Below are positions 5,888 to 55,816 of a stretch of DNA of 64,000 nt, piece by piece. Position 1 is the stretch's first letter; each line of letters opens with the position of its first letter. This DNA is from a candidate division WWE3 bacterium CG08_land_8_20_14_0_20_40_13. GTDB lineage: Bacteria > Patescibacteriota > WWE3 > 0-14-0-20-40-13. The position numbers and the translations under genes are program-made. The notes beneath the pieces were generated by a model. That model worked only from the letters and a program-made list of their open reading frames with translations, did no database searches and was not told the DNA's origin. The DNA is taken from positions 4,345 through 68,344 of the forward strand of contig PEYT01000004.1 of NCBI GenBank assembly GCA_002774285.1. Reading direction: 5' to 3'.

Positions 5888-5943
5888 TTAATAATTCGGG
5901 AGGATCCCGTTTCGGGATCCTCCCGAATTGGGATCCTCCCGGT

Positions 5944-6855
5944 TTTATGGCCCAAATAATCAATTTTTACGAACGGCAAAGTGAAAATATTGCCAAAACA
6001 TTTGGCCTTTTAATAGGTTTTGTGGTTCTTTTTTCTCTTTTCGCTTATTTTATAGGTTACATCTATAACGGCTCCCAGTATTTTTTGCCATTCGCTTTTC
6101 TTTTTTCGCTTGGCACTTCATTTGTCAGTTTCTATTTTAGTGAATCCATTGTTCTTGCCGCCTCCAAAGCACATAAAGCAAGTAAAAAAGAATATTTTAA
6201 TTTTTATACCGTGGTCGAAAACATCTCTCTTGGAACTGGACTTCCGATGCCAAAGCTATATGTGATAGATGATTCTGCCCCAAACGCCTTTGCAACCGGA
6301 AGAGATAAACATCACGCCTCGATCGTCGCGACAACGGGGCTTTTGGAATCACTTAATCGCCCGGAATTAGAAGGGGTCATGGCGCACGAACTTTCTCATG
6401 TAGGAAATAACGATATGTTACTTATGACGGTTGTCGCGGTTCTTGTCGGTACCGTTGTTATGGTCATGGATTGGTTTTGGCGGGTGCGGATTAGAGTGGG
6501 GGATGACGACGATAAAAAATCAGGCGCAATTTTTCTTGTTATCGCTTTAGTTTTCGCAATTTTAACACCCCTAATTGCCCAGCTTATTAAATTTGCGATT
6601 TCCAGACAAAGGGAGTTTTTGGCGGATGCAACGGCCGTTAAATACACAAGAAATCCTACCGGTTTAGTAAATGCTCTAATAAAGGTCGCAAGTTCAAAGG
6701 AACCTTTGGAAGTTGCAAATAAGGCGACCGCTCATTTATATTTTGAAAATCCCTTAGATAATGTGCAAGGAAGCGAAGGCGTCGGCTTTCTGAAGAATCT
6801 CTTTTCAACCCACCCACCGGTTTCCGAGCGCATCAAAAGACTTCAAGAAATGTAA
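5944..6855 (+). CDS. htpX: HtpX-like M48 zinc metalloprotease
   Basis: HELSH zinc motif, TM helices and an overall HtpX pattern. The start is taken at MAQIINF (5944). The 20 codons upstream in the track ORF (from 5884) are encoded by a palindromic repeat and are probably not translated. Confidence 0.7.
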   Translation, partial: FMAQIINFYERQSENIAKTFGLLIGFVVLFSLFAYFIGYIYNGSQYFLPFAFLFSLGTSFVSFYFSESIVLAASKAHKASKKEYFNFYTVVENISLGTGLPMPKLYVIDDSAPNAFATGRDKHHASIVATTGLLESLNRPELEGVMAHELSHVGNNDMLLMTVVAVLVGTVVMVMDWFWRVRIRVGDDDDKKSGAIFLVIALVFAILTPLIAQLIKFAISRQREFLADATAVKYTRNPTGLVNALIKVASSKEPLEVANKATAHLYFENPLDNVQGSEGVGFLKNLFSTHPPVSERIKRLQEM

Positions 6856-8346: not shown

Positions 8347-8973
8347 ATGCGAAAGGAAATAGAAATTATAGAAATATTAAAAAAGCAAAGACCCGATGCT
8401 GTTTCAGAATTAAGTTGGATAACGCCTTTGGATTTTATGGTGGCGGTAATTCTTTCGGCGCAGGCGACAGATAAAGGTGTTAACAAGATTACCCCGAGAC
8501 TCTTTGAGAAATATAAAGCCGTTAATGATTATCTTAAGATATCGCTTGAAGAATTAGAGAAAGATATATCGTCGATTAACTTTTTTAGGACGAAAGCCAA
8601 AAGGATCAAAGAGGCCTGTAATGTCATCATGAATAAGTTTCATGGGAAAATTCCGCAAACAATGGAAGAATTATTGACGATTCCCGGACTTGGAAGAAAA
8701 AGCGCCAATGTCATTTTGATAAATGTTTTTGATAAAATTGAAGGTGTTGTAGTGGACACTCATATCACTAGAGTTTCTCAAAGATTGGGATTAACAAAAG
8801 AGAAAGACGCGGTAAAAATCGAAAGGGATTTAATGAAAATTTATCCCAAAATATATTGGGCAGCCGTCTCGCATTTGTTTGTGCTCCACGGGAGATATGT
8901 TTGTAAATCCAGAAAGCCGGATTGCGTGGGGTGTTTAATTAACAAGTATTGTCCTTGGTACAGGCCGAATTAA
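8347..8973 (+). CDS. nth: endonuclease III
   Basis: HhH-GPD fold with the C-terminal 4Fe-4S cluster loop C-x6-C-x2-C-x5-C (CKSRKPDCVGCLINKYC). Confidence 0.8.
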   Translation: MRKEIEIIEILKKQRPDAVSELSWITPLDFMVAVILSAQATDKGVNKITPRLFEKYKAVNDYLKISLEELEKDISSINFFRTKAKRIKEACNVIMNKFHGKIPQTMEELLTIPGLGRKSANVILINVFDKIEGVVVDTHITRVSQRLGLTKEKDAVKIERDLMKIYPKIYWAAVSHLFVLHGRYVCKSRKPDCVGCLINKYCPWYRPN

Positions 8974-8975
8974 AT

Positions 8976-9803
8976 ATGCTCACACCATCAGTTTCGGGTA
9001 TTTTAATATCGATTGGAATTTTAATCGCCATGCTTTTTTCCGAGTATTTATTAAGTACACATCCGCAGGAAAAAAGAATAGGGAACAAAAGATTAAAAGC
9101 CACCGACCGCGATATATTAAGATCGCTGATTACTATCGTTCCATTTTCTCTTGTTGGAGCAAGGTTGTACCATGCCGTTAACTATTGGAATTACTATACG
9201 AATAATCCTTTGGAGATATTAAAAACATGGAATGGGGGAATGGGATTTTACGGAGCTCTGTTAGGCGGGATTCTTGCTTTTTTGGTATTCTCGTTTATCA
9301 AAAGAGCCCCCGTTTTTAAATTCCGCTTTATTGTAATTTCTGACTTTTTATTTTTATCTCTGCCTTTGGCCTATGCCATTGGTCGTTGGGAAAGTTTTAT
9401 AACGCGCGATATCGTGGGAATTCCTACAAAAGTTCCGTGGGCGATTAGTGTTCCGTTTGCCTTTCGTCCTCAAGGATTTAAACTATACGATTCGTTTCAC
9501 CCTGTTTTTTTATACGAATCGTTTCTATGTTTGCTTTTGTTCCTTGGTTTATACTTTGTCTTTAGGTTTGTCAAAAGGTGGAAAGCCGATGGTTCCATTT
9601 CTCTCTTGTTTTTGCTTGGTTACTCTTTAATTCGTCTAGTTACTGAATCGATGAGAATTGGGATCTGGAAGATTGGTATTTATCCTACTGCTTCAATAAT
9701 CTCTATAACAATCCTTATTGTTTCAATAATACTTCTTGTCAAAATGTATCACCACCATTTCGCGAAGTTTTTCAGAAAAAGAATTAGGGCAACATCCCTT
9801 TAA
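8976..9803 (+). CDS. lgt: prolipoprotein diacylglyceryl transferase
   Basis: GARLYH and WNGGMGFYGALLGG motifs of Lgt. The start is moved to the ATG at 8976, just after the nth stop. Confidence 0.7.
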   Translation: MLTPSVSGILISIGILIAMLFSEYLLSTHPQEKRIGNKRLKATDRDILRSLITIVPFSLVGARLYHAVNYWNYYTNNPLEILKTWNGGMGFYGALLGGILAFLVFSFIKRAPVFKFRFIVISDFLFLSLPLAYAIGRWESFITRDIVGIPTKVPWAISVPFAFRPQGFKLYDSFHPVFLYESFLCLLLFLGLYFVFRFVKRWKADGSISLLFLLGYSLIRLVTESMRIGIWKIGIYPTASIISITILIVSIILLVKMYHHHFAKFFRKRIRATSL

Positions 9804-10388
9804 GGGCACCGCCCTATTAGGATTTTGTCTAAGAAGGTACTTTAAGCAAGAGCGTTGGCGGCGAGCGGCCCATTTTATGATAAGCCAAACCAAAAGGGGT
9901 TGACCGCGTTTTTCAAGACGCATTGTTCCAATATCAATAAATCCTAAATTGTTTTCCGGAGTTACGACAATATTTCCCACGCGGTCTTTATTTCCTAAAA
10001 ACAAACTCCAAGCACCAAAAAAATCCCAAGAGATTTTTTCTTTATCTTCCATGAGTTGGTTTAATTGGATCAATTTGACGAATTGGTCTTTGAGCTTTTG
10101 ATCGACCAGATCGCTTTTATGTAAAATCCTGCCCTCAACAAATTTCTGAAGTAAATCGAAAGATTTCTCATTATCTTTTACAATTACATGTACCTCAGGT
10201 AAAAAATCCTTAAAGTATTTTTTAAGAATTGGAAAATCCTCTACAACCTCTTTTACATATTTTTCTTTTCCAAGCCTAATTCTTATTCCAATTGGGGATT
10301 TTAAGAGATATCCCTCGTCGTATTTACGGATTAAATTTTCACCGCCGACTGCAAAAACTGGACCGATCTTTGAAGGATCAATTTGCAT
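9723..10388 (-). CDS. hypothetical protein, possibly a small atypical kinase-fold protein
   Basis: 221 aa. ...NIVVTPENNLGFIDIG... resembles the catalytic-loop/DFG arrangement of small lipid or sugar kinases. It overlaps the lgt 3' end convergently by 81 nt. Confidence 0.3.
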   Translation of the reverse strand: MQIDPSKIGPVFAVGGENLIRKYDEGYLLKSPIGIRIRLGKEKYVKEVVEDFPILKKYFKDFLPEVHVIVKDNEKSFDLLQKFVEGRILHKSDLVDQKLKDQFVKLIQLNQLMEDKEKISWDFFGAWSLFLGNKDRVGNIVVTPENNLGFIDIGTMRLEKRGQPLLVWLIIKWAARRQRSCLKYLLRQNPNRAVPLKGCCPNSFSEKLREMVVIHFDKKYY

Positions 10389-10447
10389 ATGAAACGGGAC
10401 ACTACCCCGAAAGGGGCAGTGCCCAGATGCTGTAAAATTCTCCGATC

Positions 10448-12655
10448 TTAAATTGATTGATGTTTCCTACCAAAACCCAATGAGCGCATTTTTAGTCTCA
10501 CAAGCCCAAAAATCACCATCAAAAGAGGTACGCCGACAAGGTTTCCGTATTTAACGGCGTTTTTCTCCGTTTCACTTTTAAATACCAAGGGCGATGGTAT
10601 ACTGGATTTTGCTCTTATGGCTACAAATCCTTTGTCGTTTGTGGCCAGATCAAAAAGATTTAAGGCAAAAGAAGAATTTGCCCCATAAAAATCTTTGGTA
10701 ATCATATCGTCGTTTGATATTACGATAACCTTCCCTCCGCTTTGATTTTCAGCTAGAACAGCGACACTTCTTTCTTTAAGATTGCTCTTGGAAAAATTTT
10801 TGTTGGGGGAAACATCAATTGTTGTTCCTTCGTCACTTCCAGCCGAGGACGAAGATTTTGCGATGACGGTTTGCTTTATTCCTTCCACATTCTTAAGTTC
10901 CAAATCGCTTCCCCAAGCAGTAAGAACAGGAGCGATATTTCCAAGTAAATTCTTTCCCTCTCCCGTCAAGGTAACTCTTGCAAAGTATGGGTAGGGAAGA
11001 ACATAAGTAAAGAATCCTTGGTTAAGGTTGATTCTCTCGTTGTTTTGCAAATCAAAAATAAGGTCTTTGTTCAACGAAATCCCGTATGGAGCTAGCGTGT
11101 CATCAATATTATTTTTATTTTCGGTAGGGGATAGGGTAGAAATCGATATATCATAAGAATCTCCAAAAACGATAAGCGCTTTTCCGGAGTCGACAAACTT
11201 TTTAATTTTCTCGTTTGTTCCGCTATCCAGCGGTTCCTTTGGGCCGGCAAGGACTAAAATGTCTGTATCAACCGGTATTATTTTTTCTTCCTTATCTTTT
11301 GGTTCTTTAACAAGTGACAGGGTGGTCGCTTGGTAGTATTTGGAAAGTTCGTCGCGGAATGTTGCCAAATCGGAATAAAGTCCAAGGCTTTTTGCGTCCT
11401 GTAAAAACGCCACTTTTTTGTTTGATCCACCAGATACTCTCTTAACTAAGGTAATCGTTTGATATTCTAATCCCTCTGTGGATTCCAAAAAGGCGATCGG
11501 TTCCTTATCCTCTCCGTTTTTGGCAACTATTCCCAAAAGTCCTTTTTTGGCTTGAAATTCATCATTTCTTACCGTGTTAAATTGCACTGGGGTTATCCCG
11601 TCGCTTAATGCGTTTTGCTCTTCTTCGGGAGAACTGGTTTCTTTATATTCTATTTTAAGCTTGTTTCCGGGAACCATGGAAAAATCCTTTAGTAGGTCCA
11701 TAAGGGCATCTTTTCTTTCGGCAAATTCTGGCGGAAGTTCTTTGGAATAATAAAAAACCAATAGGGTATTGCCATCCAATTTCCGCAAAATATCTTTGGT
11801 CGTTGGAGAAAGTGTATATACCTTATCGCGGGTTAGATCTAGGCGTATAAAAAGAGGTTTGACAAAGAAATTTAAAAGAACAACTCCAGCAAAAAGGGCC
11901 GCGACCGTTGTTTTAAGAGTGTAGGACAAAAACCTGCTACCTTTGGAAATTCGTCCTTGGGAAAGAATAAAAGCACTTAGGGCCAGAAAGAAAAGTGAGA
12001 AGCTTATAAAATATATTGCATCTCTTAAATCCAGAACCCCTTTATCAAATGAATTGATGCGGGAGAACGCGCCAAAAGAAGAAACGATGGAAGCGAAAAA
12101 CGGGGGAAGCCCCATGGTAACGGAATCCGATCCCAAAAGAACAAAAGAGATAATGGTCACGAGGGATATTACAAACGCCACGATCTGATTATCGGTAAGC
12201 GTGGAAATAAGAACACCGATAGAAACAAAAAGCATTCCAAGAAAAGCAAGTCCCAAATACGATGTTAAGACAACACCCCAATCAAATTTCCCGTATAGGG
12301 AAAGGGAAGTCGGAATAGTTAAAGTAATGGCGATCATCAAAAGATAAATAAAGAATGTGCCGACAAATTTTCCAATGATAAATTGTAACGGGGAAACAGG
12401 GGCAGTAATAACAGTTTCCAAGGTTTTGTTGCTTTTTTCTCCGGCCACTGTTGCCATAGTTAAAGCCGGGATGATTACGGCAAGAAGCATCGGGATATTT
12501 AAAGTGTATGGGCGAACAGAGGCGTAGCCAGAAAGAAATATCTGGCGGAAAAATAAAAAGTAAGAAACCCCAATAAAAGCGACAAAGAATATGTAACCTA
12601 CGGGCTGGTTAAAGAAGTTTAAGAACTCTCTTTTTGCTATAGTTAGGATTTTCAT
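10448..12655 (-). CDS. ABC-2 type permease fused to a large GldG-like extracytoplasmic domain
   Basis: N-terminal 6-TM ABC-2 permease-like region and a long soluble domain ending in a TM helix. The 4-nt ATGA overlap with the upstream ATPase gene suggests an operon. Confidence 0.5.
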   Translation of the reverse strand: MKILTIAKREFLNFFNQPVGYIFFVAFIGVSYFLFFRQIFLSGYASVRPYTLNIPMLLAVIIPALTMATVAGEKSNKTLETVITAPVSPLQFIIGKFVGTFFIYLLMIAITLTIPTSLSLYGKFDWGVVLTSYLGLAFLGMLFVSIGVLISTLTDNQIVAFVISLVTIISFVLLGSDSVTMGLPPFFASIVSSFGAFSRINSFDKGVLDLRDAIYFISFSLFFLALSAFILSQGRISKGSRFLSYTLKTTVAALFAGVVLLNFFVKPLFIRLDLTRDKVYTLSPTTKDILRKLDGNTLLVFYYSKELPPEFAERKDALMDLLKDFSMVPGNKLKIEYKETSSPEEEQNALSDGITPVQFNTVRNDEFQAKKGLLGIVAKNGEDKEPIAFLESTEGLEYQTITLVKRVSGGSNKKVAFLQDAKSLGLYSDLATFRDELSKYYQATTLSLVKEPKDKEEKIIPVDTDILVLAGPKEPLDSGTNEKIKKFVDSGKALIVFGDSYDISISTLSPTENKNNIDDTLAPYGISLNKDLIFDLQNNERINLNQGFFTYVLPYPYFARVTLTGEGKNLLGNIAPVLTAWGSDLELKNVEGIKQTVIAKSSSSAGSDEGTTIDVSPNKNFSKSNLKERSVAVLAENQSGGKVIVISNDDMITKDFYGANSSFALNLFDLATNDKGFVAIRAKSSIPSPLVFKSETEKNAVKYGNLVGVPLLMVIFGLVRLKMRSLGFGRKHQSI

Positions 12656-18165: not shown

Positions 18166-18499
18166 TCGCAGGAAGCGAGTAAGCCAGATTCTGTTTTAGA
18201 CCTCAATCTATCTACGCTCCATCTTTCTGCCCATGTTGCTAAAAGCCAGCTTTTGAGGGCATATTCGTGGATTGCTACTGGTGGGATTGCCCGTTTCATA
18301 CCTTCGACATGCTTTCGCGAAGTCAAAGGGTCGTCTCTGTTGCTCTCAAGTCCTGTTAATTCAGAACTTGTTTTCCGCGCCTTTCGGTACGGGAACGCCA
18401 GCGGTTTTAACCGTCGGGGCTTGCGCCCCGTCCCATGCTTTTTTGTGTAGTCTGGACTTTCCTCCCGCCGTAGGCGGGTAGAGGCCCTGCTTCCTGCGG
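18166..18499 (-). ncRNA. rnpB: RNase P RNA (bacterial type)
   Basis: Minus-strand P4 5' strand GGGAGGAAAGUCCAGAC (plus 18454-18465) and P4 3' strand ACAGAAUCUGGCUUA (plus 18180-18194). P1 pairs 5' GCAGGAAGC with 3' GCUUCCUGC. P3 hairpin CCCGCCUACGGCGGG, a GGGGCGCAAGCCCC GNRA hairpin and the CAACAGAGA motif. The region is GC-rich and has no plausible CDS. Confidence 0.65.
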
Positions 18500-30598: not shown

Positions 30599-31762
30599 GT
30601 GGAAACATCAGATAAGAAAAAAGTGGTGGTGGGGATATCGGGCGGAGTAGATTCTGCGGTTTCGGCGTACCTTTTAAAAAAACAAGGTTATGAAGTTCTT
30701 GGTGTATATATGTGGTGTTACGGAAGTCATGACGAACATTGTCGGGCTCATCAAGACCGCGCCGATGCCATAAAAGTTGCCACGCATTTAGGAATTCCTT
30801 TTGAGATTTGGGATTTTGAAAAAGAATATTCCGAGAAAGTTTTAAAGTATTTTTATGATGAATATAATGCTGGATGTACTCCAAATCCCGATGTGGTTTG
30901 TAATAAAGAGATAAAGTTTGGAATGTTTTATAAAAGAGCGATTAAGAAGCGAGGTTTTGATTTTGTGGCAACAGGGCATTATGCTCGAGTGGTTGGGGGC
31001 ACATCGCAAATTAGGGCAGTGTCCGAATTCGGGCACTGCCCTAAATATCTGGCTTCTGGAAAAGATAAAACTAAGGATCAATCCTACTTTTTATATCGCA
31101 TTCGCTTGGAACAACTCTCCCACATCCTTTTTCCCGTCGGTGATTTAACAAAAAAAGAAGTCCGTCAAATTGCAAAAGAAGCAGGACTTCCCGTTTTTGA
31201 TAAACCCGATAGTCAAGGGGTTTGTTTTGTTGGGGAAGTATCAATGCGCGATTTCCTTAAAGGGAAAGTGGATTATAAAGAAGGGAATGTTGTTGATACA
31301 AAGGGGGAAGTGATCGGTCACCATACTGGTCTGCCGTTTTACACAATCGGTCAGCGCCGTGGGTTCACTTTGACGAAATATAAAGGATTGCCCATGTATG
31401 CGATTGGAAAAAATGCGGTGAATAACACCCTCATCGTTGGATGTGGGAAAGAGACTGAGGCGGAAAGTTTTAGAGTTGGAGATATTAATTGGCTCGTTTC
31501 TAATACGGGATCCTCCCGAAACGGGAGGATCCCGTATCAAAACTTAAGGGTTCGGATCAGACATCTTGGTAAATTAATCCCGTGTGATATATTATTTGAA
31601 AATTTGAAAAATAAAAATTCATTAAAAATTTCAAATTTGGAGGCCGTGCCCCCATCGCAGGTACGATGTAAATTAAAAATTCCCCAGCGGGGGGTAGCTC
31701 CTGGACAGTCAGCTGTTTTCTACCTTGATGACATTGTTATTGGCGGAGGCGTAATATTGTAG
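30599..31762 (+). CDS. mnmA: tRNA-specific 2-thiouridylase MnmA, with two in-frame palindromic insertions
   Basis: PP-loop SGGVDS, the KDQSYFLY motif and the C-terminal PGQSAVFY. The extra segments IRAVSEFGHCP and NTGSSRNGRIPYQ are encoded by perfect palindromes at 31011-31044 and 31503-31537. Confidence 0.8.
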   Translation: METSDKKKVVVGISGGVDSAVSAYLLKKQGYEVLGVYMWCYGSHDEHCRAHQDRADAIKVATHLGIPFEIWDFEKEYSEKVLKYFYDEYNAGCTPNPDVVCNKEIKFGMFYKRAIKKRGFDFVATGHYARVVGGTSQIRAVSEFGHCPKYLASGKDKTKDQSYFLYRIRLEQLSHILFPVGDLTKKEVRQIAKEAGLPVFDKPDSQGVCFVGEVSMRDFLKGKVDYKEGNVVDTKGEVIGHHTGLPFYTIGQRRGFTLTKYKGLPMYAIGKNAVNNTLIVGCGKETEAESFRVGDINWLVSNTGSSRNGRIPYQNLRVRIRHLGKLIPCDILFENLKNKNSLKISNLEAVPPSQVRCKLKIPQRGVAPGQSAVFYLDDIVIGGGVIL

Positions 31763-32240: not shown

Positions 32241-32649
32241 GTTGCGATTTAAAATACGAGGCAAAGAAACTGTTTGTTGCGGGCCAGAAGAGAGAGGGGT
32301 TAGCTAAAATATATTCTTTTTCTAACCACCTAACAGATGCGATTTCATTATCATCAATACCCATCTCAATTTCAAAAGGAACTTTCTCGCATTCCCACCA
32401 ATAAGTTTCTTGATTTGCAATATCGCTTCCGGTTTTAGCAAGTTCTCTAATTGGTTTTATTACAATTCCCAATTCCTCTTTTACTTCGCGGATCAAAGCT
32501 TGCTTTGGATTTTCTCCTTCTTCAACATGCCTGCCACAAGGATAAAACAATCCGGTATATTTTCCAAAATATTTCTTAGCAGTAATAAGAAGGTATTCTT
32601 TTACGCCGTTATTCTCTCTAAAAATTATTCCTAGTACTACTTGTCTCAT
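32224..32649 (-). CDS. NUDIX hydrolase
   Basis: Nudix box G-x5-E-x7-REVKEELG in ...GRHVEEGENPKQALIREVKEELGI... Confidence 0.65.
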   Translation of the reverse strand: MRQVVLGIIFRENNGVKEYLLITAKKYFGKYTGLFYPCGRHVEEGENPKQALIREVKEELGIVIKPIRELAKTGSDIANQETYWWECEKVPFEIEMGIDDNEIASVRWLEKEYILANPSLFWPATNSFFASYFKSQLTNEL

Positions 32650-32861
32650 ATCATTTTTCTCCTAATGCTCCCACCAACTTTAGCTAACCAGTGTTTAAAT
32701 GGTTCGGTTTTTGGAGAAGGAATAGACTGGACTATACGAAGAAGTCCTTCTGTCTTGGCACAATCAGTTTCACGCATTTTTCCATCTTCGGCTTGTAATT
32801 TCAACTGTTTCCATAATGATTTAATCATTCCATAACTAACCAGAATGTGCAAGAGGGGAAG

Positions 32862-32947
32862 TGGTGGGCGAGAGAGGATTTGAACCTCCACGGATTTTAC
32901 TCCACTGGCTTCTGAAACCAGCCTGGCTACCATTACAGCACTCGCCC
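32862..32947 (-). tRNA. tRNA-Leu (anticodon CAG), CCA encoded
   Basis: I folded it by hand: a 7-bp acceptor stem GGGCGAG/CUCGCCC, an anticodon stem CUGGU/GCCAG around the loop UUCAGAA (anticodon CAG), a long variable arm, a T-loop GGUUCAAAUCC and a 3' ACCA. Confidence 0.85.
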
Positions 32948-32969
32948 GTATCATTCATATTCTACCTTA

Positions 32970-32999
32970 TTGACAAACCCTTAGTAAATTATGTATGTT
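32970..32999 (+). promoter_or_regulatory. candidate rRNA promoter (TTGACA-N18-TATGTT)
   Basis: A consensus -35 element sits about 200 nt upstream of the 16S start. The spacer is 18 nt, so the call is tentative. Confidence 0.3.
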
Positions 33000-33170
33000 A
33001 CCGAGGTGACAGTAAAAGACTCCTGCAATGCAGGTGTGGTTTTTTTGTCTAATTTGATCTTTAAAAATTCAATATCAAAAATTTAGCTTACCGGCAGTTC
33101 AATTGTTTTGAAAAGGTGCGGGTTATAGCTATAAGTTAAAGTGAAGTTCAAAAATTAAGTGGTGGAAAGA

Positions 33171-34630
<1,460 letters not shown>

Positions 34631-34883
34631 CAAAGGAGATTTTCTTCGATGATTTTTATCATCGCGGAAGCTCATAAATGTTTTCTAAGTCGGAAAACTT
34701 TGGAGCATAAACATTTTCTTTTGCCCCTCACGGCAAAAGATCAGACAGCTTGGTTGGGTGAGGTTTAACCTAACAATGAATCTTTCCACCGCTTAGAATT
34801 TGAATCGCGTCAGACGCGACTTTGCTTTAACTTAACTCCTCAGCACTGTAAATTCCGCGCATTTTTTGTGCTATCATTTGAAT

Positions 34884-35708
34884 ATGGCAAACACCTCTGT
34901 CCTTTGCGCCCAAAACGGCTCTATAAAAATAGCTGCTCTTGACCATCGCGATTCCTTAAAAAAAATTCTTCCCGAGGATGAAATAAATAAGTTCAAAAGT
35001 CTGTGTGTCGAGGCATTTAGTCCTTTTGTGACCGCAGTTTTACTTGATCCTGAATATTTAGAAAAAACAGGGATTGGGGCAATGCCCCTAAAGGGGCACT
35101 GCCCCATTATTTCCGTCCCGTTTCTTGCCTCTTTGGAAAAATCAGGATACATAGACACTTCCGATGGCAGGATTACCGAAACTTATGGTGACTATTTTAA
35201 TGCAAGAACAGCTAAAAGAGTCGGAGTTATCGCCACAAAGCTTTTAATTTATTTTAATAATGACGCACCATCAAAGAATCACCAAATAGAGATTGCGAAA
35301 AGATGTTTTGATGAATCTCGTCAAGTGGGACTTCCCTTACTTTTAGAAATCGTTACTTATCCATATCAAAATAAGGTTTATAGCGAGAGTTTAGAAATCT
35401 CCCGTGCCGTCTCTCAACTTGCGGATTTCGGAGATGTTTTAAAGCTTAATTTTTGTGACAATCTTGATATTTTATCGGATCTAAAGCATTTGGAAAAACC
35501 TTGGGTTCTTTTGAGTCGGGGAATGCTCTTTCCGGAATACAAAAGATTGTTAATAAAAGCTAAAGAAATTGGTGGCGCGAGCGGCTTTGCCGTTGGACGG
35601 GCCTTATGGCAGGAAGTTGGCAATCTTAAAACTTGGGCAAAGAAAGAATTTTTTATCAAAACTACTGCAGTTTCGCGTCTAAAGGAATTAGCAGAAATTT
35701 TTAATTAG
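34884..35708 (+). CDS. class I aldolase of the LacD/tagatose-bisphosphate aldolase family, with an in-frame palindromic insertion
   Basis: The LLDPEY, LLLEIVTYP and GRALW blocks parallel LacD. The start is taken at MANTSV. The extra segment GAMPLKGHCPI is encoded by the palindrome at 35075-35106. Confidence 0.6.
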   Translation: MANTSVLCAQNGSIKIAALDHRDSLKKILPEDEINKFKSLCVEAFSPFVTAVLLDPEYLEKTGIGAMPLKGHCPIISVPFLASLEKSGYIDTSDGRITETYGDYFNARTAKRVGVIATKLLIYFNNDAPSKNHQIEIAKRCFDESRQVGLPLLLEIVTYPYQNKVYSESLEISRAVSQLADFGDVLKLNFCDNLDILSDLKHLEKPWVLLSRGMLFPEYKRLLIKAKEIGGASGFAVGRALWQEVGNLKTWAKKEFFIKTTAVSRLKELAEIFN

Positions 35709-46571: not shown

Positions 46572-46698
46572 ACAGTTTCTTATCCAAAGTAATAGTTTGA
46601 CCAAGTCCTTTCTACCTTCAAATTTACCAATTAACAAACCTAATAAGTACCCCCCCCTCAATGTTCTGTGCTACTTGACAACCGCGTCTTGTTGCAAT

Positions 46699-46722
46699 AT
46701 CCTGTACATATATGTACAGGAT
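46699..46722 (+). promoter_or_regulatory. perfect 24-bp palindrome ATCCTGTACATATATGTACAGGAT overlapping the abiEi start codon; putative AbiEi autoregulatory operator
   Basis: The two 12-nt halves are exact reverse complements. The ATG of the 46712 ORF lies inside it. Confidence 0.4.
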
Positions 46723-47254
46723 AGACACTCTTATTAAGTTGGATAGGAAGCTGTATCATACAAACGATCTGGCTATATGTTGGAAAATAATTAACAAAAA
46801 TACCTTATACACGGCAATTAAGCGGTATATAAAGAGGGGAATTTTGATTCCGGTTAAAAAAGGTTTATACTCCACCATTCCTTTAGTGCAACTTGATCGG
46901 CAAAACCTTGGAATTGCTCTTATCCATAAGTATTGCTACTTAAGCACGGAATCTGTATTTGTTAAAAACGGGATCATCACCCAAAACAACTTTTACACAA
47001 CTTTTATTAGTAGTGTTTCTGCCAAAATAGCAGTTTCCGATTGGCAATTTCTTTATCGAAAATTGAAAGACGAGTTTCTTTATAACCAAGAGGGTATTTA
47101 TAGCGAGAACGGCGTTTATATGGCGACGACGGAAAGAGCCGTTGCCGATATGTTGTATTTTAATCCAACATACCATTTTGACCTTTTAGAAAATATCGAT
47201 TTTAACAAAGTAAAAGATATCCAAAAAAAGGTTGGTTATCCATGCAGTATTTAA
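46712..47254 (+). CDS. abiEi: AbiEi-family antitoxin (type IV TA, wHTH)
   Basis: N-terminal ...LYTAIKRYIKRGILIPVKKGLYST... matches the AbiEi_4 pattern (..L.RLV..G.L.RV.RGVY). 13-nt overlap with the downstream nucleotidyltransferase-toxin gene. Confidence 0.55.
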   Translation: MYRIDTLIKLDRKLYHTNDLAICWKIINKNTLYTAIKRYIKRGILIPVKKGLYSTIPLVQLDRQNLGIALIHKYCYLSTESVFVKNGIITQNNFYTTFISSVSAKIAVSDWQFLYRKLKDEFLYNQEGIYSENGVYMATTERAVADMLYFNPTYHFDLLENIDFNKVKDIQKKVGYPCSI

Positions 47255-47970
47255 GACCGGAAGATACAATTCACAAATCTTATTTAAATAGATTACTAAT
47301 AGAGATAGTAGATAATCCAATATTATCATCCAACTTAGCGTTTAAAGGAGGAACATGCGCACAAATGCTGCGCTTTTTGGATAGGTTTTCTGTGGATTTG
47401 GACTTTGATGTAATAACAATGACGGATGAATCTAAATTAAGAAACGAGTTCCGAAATATTTTTAATCATTTAGGGCTAACTATGATTAAAGAATCGACTC
47501 CAGCCCTATTTTTTCAGCTTAAATATGCAAGCGAAACTGGGAAACGAAGCGCAATAAAGACAAGTGCGAGTATTATAAAAATAAAAACCAACGAGTATAA
47601 AATTCAATATTTATCGGAAATTGATAGATTAGCTAACTGTCAAACAATAGAAGCGATGTTTGCAAATAAATTAGTTGCCATAATCGATCGGTACAAGTTG
47701 CATAAAAGTATAGCCGGGCGTGATATCTACGATACGCACCATTTTTTTATTCAAGGATATTCATACAAAGATGAAGTAATCCTAGAAAGAACGGGGCAAG
47801 AGCCAAAAGCATACCTAAAATATTTAATAGAATTTATAAAAGACAAGGTTACTCAAACAATTGTAAATGAAGATTTAAATTCCCTATTACCAGCAGATAA
47901 ATTTCAGCAAATTAGAAAGGTTTTGATTCCAGAAACTTTGTCTTTTCTTGCAAGAGAGGTCGGGAAGTAA
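47242..47970 (+). CDS. abiEii: AbiEii/AbiGii-family nucleotidyltransferase toxin (DUF1814)
   Basis: FKGGTCAQMLRFLDRFSVDLDFDV is the GGT...R.SeDlDf signature of AbiEii toxins. Confidence 0.6.
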   Translation: MQYLRPEDTIHKSYLNRLLIEIVDNPILSSNLAFKGGTCAQMLRFLDRFSVDLDFDVITMTDESKLRNEFRNIFNHLGLTMIKESTPALFFQLKYASETGKRSAIKTSASIIKIKTNEYKIQYLSEIDRLANCQTIEAMFANKLVAIIDRYKLHKSIAGRDIYDTHHFFIQGYSYKDEVILERTGQEPKAYLKYLIEFIKDKVTQTIVNEDLNSLLPADKFQQIRKVLIPETLSFLAREVGK

Positions 47971-55786: not shown

Positions 55787-55816
55787 GCGCGGGCTGTCGG
55801 CCCGCGCAAGTTTTTT
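55787..55816 (+). terminator. rho-independent terminator between tuf and rpsJ
   Basis: GCGCGGGC-TGTCG-GCCCGCGC hairpin followed by AAGTTTTTTG. Confidence 0.6.

Follow-up and report, generated by a model that had tools for sequence, protein, structure and literature searches.

The 64,000-nucleotide stretch of the candidate division WWE3 bacterium CG08_land_8_20_14_0_20_40_13 analysed here (contig PEYT01000004.1; the whole stretch is called the window) contains short GC-rich palindromes that lie in frame inside conserved genes, among them mnmA and an aldolase gene. The palindromes belong to two families, which we call B and A, and copies with the same core are found at unlinked sites, showing that they have spread. 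The copies persist in frame in tolerant loops of the host proteins, some of them are old and others lineage-specific, the symmetry of their arms is preserved, and palindromes nested in palindromes are found. Both families are probably dispersed palindromic repeats of this WWE3 (Patescibacteria) genome that are non-coding by origin.

The gene mnmA (30599-31762, + strand), which encodes the tRNA 2-thiouridine synthase, contains palindrome B1, TTAGGGCAGTGTCCGAATTCGGGCACTGCCCTAA, in frame at 31011-31044. B1 is 34 nucleotides long and is made up of two 17-nucleotide arms, with a single mismatch that becomes a U.G wobble in the mRNA sense. The open reading frame (ORF) reads IRAVSEFGHCPK across the palindrome, to which the element itself contributes RAVSEFGHCPK, and a possible degenerate third arm, GGGCACATCGC, is located directly upstream. 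Palindrome B2, ATTGGGGCAATGCCCCTAAAGGGGCACTGCCCCATT, is 36 nucleotides long (35073-35108) and lies in frame in the gene for a DeoC/LacD-family aldolase (PF01791; 34884-35708, + strand), for which we use the ATG at 34884 as start; the listed ORF starts with a TTG at 34866. Here the ORF is translated to GIGAMPLKGHCPI, with IGAMPLKGHCPI as the peptide of the element. A preliminary description of the window, made from the letters alone, had located both palindromes correctly in these two genes, in frame and with a common core, GGGCA(C/G)TGCCC; the limits it gave for the aldolase element, 35075-35106, are those of the perfectly complementary core and not of the full string. It had also pointed out that both proteins share a GHCP peptide, which holds true but merely reflects the same DNA being read in the same frame, since copies elsewhere are read in other frames.

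The description had further proposed a dispersed repeat family, and this was borne out, since additional copies were found in the window and the core recurs far above chance. The motif GGGCACTGCCC, allowing up to one mismatch, has ten matches on both strands of the window, whereas 0.32 are expected and none of 100 shuffles reached ten. Two GGG-N5-CCC units separated by 2-8 nucleotides gave eight overlapping matches at five loci compared to 0-1 in 20 shuffles, and five GC-rich hairpins of at least nine pairs are present compared to 0-1 in Markov shuffles. RNA folding z-scores for the two palindromes described first were -6.9 and -4.2, and for the elements folded the predicted hairpins reach -27 to -41 kcal/mol with z-scores of -4 to -8. 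Three to four assemblies made independently (ENA, Logan and Joint Genome Institute (JGI)), which are 99.8-99.97% identical to the window, contain the palindromes in unchanged form, so that an artefact of assembly can be dismissed.

Two more family B copies are located in the window. The degenerate copy B3 (9785-9819, 42.9 bits) lies where the 3' ends of the convergent genes lgt (8949-9803, + strand) and ORF 9723-10388 (- strand) overlap. This overlap of 81 nucleotides (9723-9803) is found at the palindrome, which reads RAVPLKGCCPN on the minus strand, and compared to its orthologue in the related contig L005, which ends just before B3, the minus-strand ORF has 33 additional residues. Copy B4 (10396-10424) is intergenic, located between two minus-strand genes; in the sense RNA its stem includes G.U pairs, and a weak T-rich tail comes next. 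Family A has the core CGGGAGGATCCCG and is represented twice. A1 (5893-5945) consists of three arms, CGGGAGGATCCCG, CGGGATCCTCCCG and GGGATCCTCCCGG, and is intergenic between lemA and an htpX-like gene; it is followed by TTTT just ahead of the htpX ATG and may act as a terminator or attenuator. A2 (31503-31537), which encodes TGSSRNGRIPY, is again in frame in mnmA and gives the protein a second loop that bears a palindrome. A third family, C, with the sequence GAGTGAAACCC, is present just downstream of the window (in contig L075).

The elements share a common anatomy. Each has two arms of 11-13 nucleotides with the form (T/C)(A)GGG-N5-CCC, often nearly self-palindromic, which are separated by 3-6 nucleotides and embedded in AT-rich flanks. 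The total length is approximately 29-36 nucleotides, or 48-58 nucleotides if elements are nested, and their GC content (47-70%) exceeds that of the genome (36-44%; approximately 39% in the window). The cores of families B and A are free of stop codons in all six frames and yield Gly/Pro/Ala/Ser-rich peptides, whereas family C contains stops and was found only between genes. A scan with Rfam at gathering thresholds reported no family at the elements.

Copies of family B are not restricted to the window. A scan of JGI metagenome contigs with a two-arm pattern recovered the mnmA copy of the window and, in addition, perfect B palindromes of the form GGGGCAGTGCCCC-3/4 nt-GGGGCACTGCCCC in other low-GC contigs, and a covariance model built from eight B copies, with B2 as best match (54 bits), found further interrupted copies. 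Together, pattern scan and covariance model yielded six additional B copies in the three contigs L178, L133 and L123. Two of them are located in YchF (GGSAPQGHCPD and NWATAP...GQCPD) and one each in CysS (GSAPAGALPQ, from another reading frame than the GHCP copies), Pth (WGSAPKG...AGALPQ) and RF1, all in frame; the sixth is intergenic, downstream of hisS. MnmA with its two elements, the aldolase, YchF, CysS, Pth and RF1 are all encoded by single ORFs that align with their homologues on either side of the element. Our census amounts to approximately ten B copies in about 110 kb, seven to eight of them in coding sequence and in different reading frames; over all families, the intergenic copies are B4, A1, the one downstream of hisS and C1. 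Two of the B copies, B2 and B7, have identical extended flanks as well, GGGATTGGGGCA...TGCCCCATTA.

The three contigs are probably part of the same genome as the window, because the ENA sample they stem from also yielded contigs identical to the window and because their closest relative is from the same JGI sample as the sister genome L007 and shows the same 72-74% protein identity. The YchF protein itself carries the annotation candidate division WWE3 bacterium CG08_land_8_20_14_0_20_40_13. A tblastx comparison of L128 and L133 with the window detected no shared genes and is uninformative on this question. Direct repeats of the GGGCACTGCCC motif were seen in other places: an unrelated contig with 46% GC (L157, JGI Ga0123355_10115391, 1410-2800) carries a long tandem array of an 18-nucleotide unit with this motif, and the low-GC contigs L085 and L098 contain direct two-copy versions.

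Comparison with orthologues revealed that B1 and B2 are additions to their host genes. The closest MnmA orthologues are P0003/L004 (72% identity in the search table, 77% in an alignment of 12 sequences) and P0004/L005 (70% and 75%, respectively). They have VVNNLLASG and KIQSLGTG in the place of VVGGTSQIRAVSEFGHCPKYLASG, the window protein being 15 residues longer, and the mnmA DNA of L004 and L005 contains no palindrome at the B1 site. In the aldolase the distance from PEY to SGY is 34 codons in the window and in L007, the sister genome (aldolase 74% identical), but 24 in L074 and 25 in L005. The closest palindrome-free orthologues are thus shorter by 15 residues (MnmA) and 9-10 residues (aldolase) and lack the peptide segment, in agreement with the preliminary description, which had regarded both copies as in-frame additions rather than ancestral protein sequence. 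The aldolase copy of L007 has decayed to GGGGCAGTGCCACAAAAGGGGCATTATTCC and encodes HYST where the window has HCPI. Since L007 retains this orthologous copy, the insertion of B2 is older than the split between the window genome and L007. The aldolase copy and the first YchF copy are common to both genomes, whereas the mnmA, CysS and RF1 copies are not present in the sister. At the A2 site, L004 and L005 have a palindrome with a different core and L007 has none; GGGATCCTCCC in the window is replaced by GGGTTCGTCCC in L004 and L005, with the other arm compensating.

The preliminary description had asked whether the inserts fall in surface loops, and the structural comparison indicates that they do. 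AlphaFold models of MnmA and the aldolase have a mean predicted local distance difference test score (pLDDT) of 88 and 94, respectively. In these models, the B1 segment (MnmA residues ~134-149) has a pLDDT of 65-69 and lies between the strands 129-133 and 149-153, the A2 segment (MnmA residues ~300-313) has a pLDDT of 58, and the B2 segment (aldolase residues 61-79) is coil with a pLDDT of 54-69. All three inserts of the window are therefore predicted to lie in low-confidence turns or coil of their host proteins. In an alignment to the solved MnmA structure 9hlv, the B1 insert is opposite a gap of 10 residues in the loop that follows the conserved GHYAR motif. A third variable segment of MnmA, ENLKNKNSLKISNLEAVPPS (residues ~340-348; window 31616-31700), has a pLDDT below 50 and is missing in close orthologues; an AT-rich inverted repeat occupies 31594-31636.

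Relatives of the window genome contain elements with the same architecture but other cores, TAGGGAGTCTCCCT-AAA-AGGGAGACTCCCTA in L007 and TAGGGATTATCCC-AAATTT-GGGATAATCCCTA in L005, and each of them has its own genome-specific family (GGGAGTCTCCC in L007, GGGATTATCCC in L005). Nested elements were observed in several cases: CCGCCAGCTGGCGG is located inside the MnmA site-A hairpin of L005 (10855-10905), and a CTGCCTG...CAGGCAG element is located inside the B copies of the second YchF site and of Pth (L178 10618-10674 and 927-984). This nesting suggests that hairpin tips are hot spots of insertion or breakage. The same two MnmA loops contain unrelated in-frame hairpin inserts of 120-260 nucleotides in other genomes of the candidate phyla radiation (CPR), located at 10436-10558 and 11009-11140 in L074 and at ~10385-10645 in L183 (z-scores -8.1, -5.2 and -5.3). 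In L183 a flanking LLRGxDxKKD..QSYF motif is apparently duplicated.

The arms appear to change in concert. Five substitutions distinguish the YchF copy of the sister genome, and two complementary pairs account for four of them; the covariation score of eight copies was reached by only 10 of 500 shuffles. Such compensatory double substitutions, which keep the stem intact here and at MnmA site A, would be expected if the hairpins were functional cis-elements under selection, for instance in stabilising or processing mRNA, in termination or attenuation, or as tandem binding sites of a dimeric protein that recognises GGGCA-N-TGCCC in DNA. The self-palindromic 5+1+5 arm units with their fixed spacing of 16-17 nucleotides would also fit this explanation, as would the weak T-rich tails at B4 and A1 and the placement of B3, B4 and A1 either between genes of the same direction or where two 3' ends converge. 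However, the predicted hairpin energy shows no bias towards the sense strand, sense and antisense being favoured in 7 versus 7 cases, and selection on the RNA is thus unsupported; because the transcribed strand is not favoured, the constraint or mechanism looks as if it acts on DNA symmetry and not on mRNA structure. Furthermore, seven to eight of the ten B copies occupy loop-coding parts of housekeeping genes that are unrelated to each other, the majority of copies is lineage-specific, the aldolase copy has been allowed to decay in the sister genome and no Rfam family matches. A role of the coding copies as intrinsic terminators was rejected, since B1, B2 and A2 are gene-internal and have no T-run; T-rich tails are limited to B4, where the tail is weak, and A1. 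Genuine terminators of this genome look different and have T-runs, such as the canonical one directly after the EF-Tu gene tuf (55787-55807), GCGCGGGCTG-T-CGGCCCGCGC followed by AAGTTTTTTG with TTTTTT. Taken together, we regard selection for a cis-acting function as an unlikely explanation for the families as a whole.

If B and A are dispersed repeats, as we think probable, their life in the genome could be envisaged as follows. Stop-free cores and a net length that keeps the frame allow copies to survive inside genes at tolerant surface loops or linkers, where they would be translated as passenger peptides. Dispersal would depend on the hairpin and proceed without target-site duplication, possibly by single-strand transposition of the HUH/Y1 type as for repetitive extragenic palindromic sequences (REPs), or by recombination or gene conversion between copies. 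Hairpin tips might be the preferred points of entry or breakage, which would account for palindromes being found within the loops of others. Templated correction of one arm from the other (quasipalindrome template switching) could keep the arms symmetric, or other copies could act as donors in a conversion, so that no selection on RNA structure has to be invoked. In a lineage in which the family became extinct, the copies would then decay in place.

The 11-nucleotide direct repeats that bracket B2 had been interpreted in the preliminary description as consistent with a target-site duplication left by an insertion like that of a miniature inverted-repeat transposable element (MITE). Both repeats exist as described, GAAAAAACAGG (35061-35071, + strand, encoding LEKTG) and GAAAAATCAGG (35136-35146, + strand), but this interpretation has to be given up. 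The PEYLE codons of the first repeat are present in orthologues with an empty site. The second repeat, 27 nucleotides beyond the palindrome, is coding sequence of ancestral origin and specifies the conserved LEKSGY, in which E85 is invariant in an alignment of 13 sequences and nearly so among 56. The palindrome-free L074 and L005 contain counterparts of both repeats and also of the 27 nucleotides between (ISVPFLASL corresponding to FSIPLITSL). A TA...TA flank is present in about 6 of 20 elements from the window genome and its relatives, where it is indistinguishable from an extension of the palindrome.

Several observations weigh against the dispersed-repeat explanation. None of the flanks of these 20 elements revealed a consistent direct repeat or a conserved target. 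Pfam detected no transposase among 20 unassigned ORFs of the window, and the sole insertion sequence (IS) seen, an IS5-like element in the sister locus L180, has AT-rich ends that are unrelated to the palindromes, leaving no transposase with matching ends. No polymorphism for presence or absence was found among strains that are 99.8-99.97% identical, all of which have the same elements. Without an enzyme and without polymorphism, present-day mobility is unproven. At the first YchF site the palindrome segment is no longer than the corresponding segment of relatives, showing a replacement and not a net insertion, and the compensatory changes described above might instead mean selection on a structure. 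In addition, the census covers about 110 kb of the genome and includes contigs (L178, L133 and L123) whose assignment is inferred.

A gene for a REP-associated tyrosine transposase (RAYT; Y1/HUH) was not found in the approximately 200 kb inspected, which do not comprise a complete genome. Scans of viral contigs yielded two matches for the B pattern, both GC-rich and unrelated, and none for the A pattern, giving no sign of a phage vector. Among the GTDB representatives, which do not include the source genome, the two-arm B pattern had 65 matches, all apparently unrelated; seven of them were inspected and found to be GC-rich and/or direct-repeat arrays, and the remainder was judged by titles that name GC-rich taxa.

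The lack of a target-site duplication would also be expected if each palindrome had been made in place, by hairpin-primed or template-switch synthesis at break-prone loops, with the similarity between copies being convergent or due to conversion. Template switching can yield nested palindromes and symmetric paired changes, and the same MnmA loops contain quite different palindromes depending on the lineage. Nevertheless, we consider this origin improbable: identical cores of 11-13 nucleotides are present at ten or more unlinked loci with unrelated surroundings, which is impossible by independent origin, B2 and B7 are identical in their extended flanks too, and coding and intergenic sites share the same families. 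Selection for the GHCP peptide in the protein, for example as a metal or redox site in the thiouridylase and the aldolase, would fit the gain of the same residues, including a Cys and a His, by both window proteins and the involvement of cysteines in MnmA chemistry, but is very improbable and largely refuted, because the reading frame varies among copies (as in CysS and Pth), intergenic copies exist, the sister aldolase has HYST in place of HCPI, and the inserts form loops of low confidence at a distance from conserved residues.

Among known repeats, the Rickettsia palindromic elements (RPEs) match the families in their behaviour. RPEs are hairpin repeats of ~100-150 bp that are found only in Rickettsia, both between genes and in frame in housekeeping ORFs (PMC10969869, summarising Ogata et al. 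2000). As in that case, the elements found here are dispersed hairpin repeats in many copies (ten of B in about 110 kb plus A and C), they form several families and lie in frame in tolerant regions of unrelated, conserved and undisrupted ORFs of a reduced genome, and they give rise to extra translated peptide segments. They are likewise positioned at surface or loop sites, as judged for the three window inserts by pLDDT and for B1 by the 9hlv alignment, and no transposase is known on either side. They differ in being only 29-36 nucleotides long, with two GGG-N5-CCC arms, and in being GC-rich elements of AT-rich Patescibacteria instead of the Rickettsia sequence families RPE-1 to RPE-10, to which no relatedness in sequence is expected; the inserts of the related CPR genomes L074 and L183, at the same MnmA loops, are of RPE size.

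In size and composition, the closest match are the GC clusters of yeast and fungal mitochondria, which evolve fast, merge and shuffle, and are mostly intergenic except for in-frame copies in var1 (PMC8811140). Their terminal AG/TAG repeats are interpreted as duplications of the target site, and for var1 conversion in a single direction has been demonstrated (PMC8811140). The two kinds have in common that short GC-rich palindromes occupy an AT-rich genome, that some are inserted in frame in coding sequence and that elements merge or nest. However, GC clusters are organellar, whereas the elements described here reside on a bacterial chromosome with 16S rRNA, rpoBC and ribosomal protein genes, have no consistent AG/TAG terminal repeats and show no polymorphism.

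Other bacterial repeats are less similar. By definition, REPs lie outside genes; their 5' tetranucleotide is conserved, being GTAG in gamma-proteobacteria, and they are mobilised by RAYT, an HUH Y1 transposase. Like REPs and the REPINs composed of them, the elements are imperfect palindromes of 20-40 nucleotides in genome-specific families, lack a target-site duplication and would likely have a single-strand hairpin as substrate; unlike them, seven to eight of the ten B copies are coding, GTAG is absent and the available sequence contains no RAYT. MITEs such as Correia, ERIC and QMITE1 are 50-500 bp long, with terminal inverted repeats that match an IS and flanking target-site duplications. 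They are also non-autonomous repeats able to form in-frame fusions with host ORFs, but the elements studied here are shorter (29-36 nucleotides), show no target-site duplication and have no matching IS among the sequences examined. Intrinsic terminators differ from the coding copies in their position at 3' ends and their U-tract. A full-text literature search yielded no description of such elements in CPR/Patescibacteria; its coverage is incomplete and the result is an absence of evidence only.

The genomes of CPR/Patescibacteria are tiny and so densely packed that hardly any space is left between genes, and few mobile elements have been recognised in them. If the repeats described here are what we take them for, they would be a third independent case, next to Rickettsia and fungal mitochondria, of selfish or semi-selfish palindromes that became protein-coding in a reduced AT-rich genome, which would point to a general consequence of genome reduction. 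They would also provide a concrete origin at the DNA level for the many lineage-specific loop insertions in CPR proteins. More tentatively, the elements might represent a new class in WWE3 and other CPR: GC-rich palindromic mobile elements of approximately 30 nucleotides that colonise essential genes in any frame, enter preferentially at hairpin tips of other elements, maintain their symmetry by templated correction and depend on a hairpin-specific enzyme. In that case they would be, together with the RPE-sized inserts, a main source of the lineage-specific loop insertions in CPR housekeeping proteins. Such segments are best masked before phylogenies are built or structures predicted, assemblies and polymerases are likely to break off at the hairpins, and the genome-specific cores could serve as markers of strains or lineages. 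The advance is modest, concerning a known kind of element, and would only be a new principle if a new mobilising mechanism emerged.

The window contains several other features. The RNase P RNA (18168-18497, - strand) is matched by the archaeal Rfam model RF00373 with 86.9 bits, the threshold being 84, and the bacterial model was not reported. The 16S rRNA gene (33172-34630) stands alone with no 23S rRNA gene adjacent; the region before it (32646-34630 including the 16S gene) contains a tRNA-Leu(CAG), encoded on the other strand, which is overlapped by a short Bro-N-like ORF (32646-32954). One of the ENA assemblies stops approximately 0.6 kb short of the 16S gene. A perfect AT-rich palindrome of 26 nucleotides, TATCCTGTACATATATGTACAGGATA (46698-46723), overlaps a TTGACA-type promoter and directly precedes two paired ORFs, the last of which is an AbiEii toxin gene (47242-47970). 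This palindrome probably serves as the operator by which a type IV toxin-antitoxin system regulates itself.

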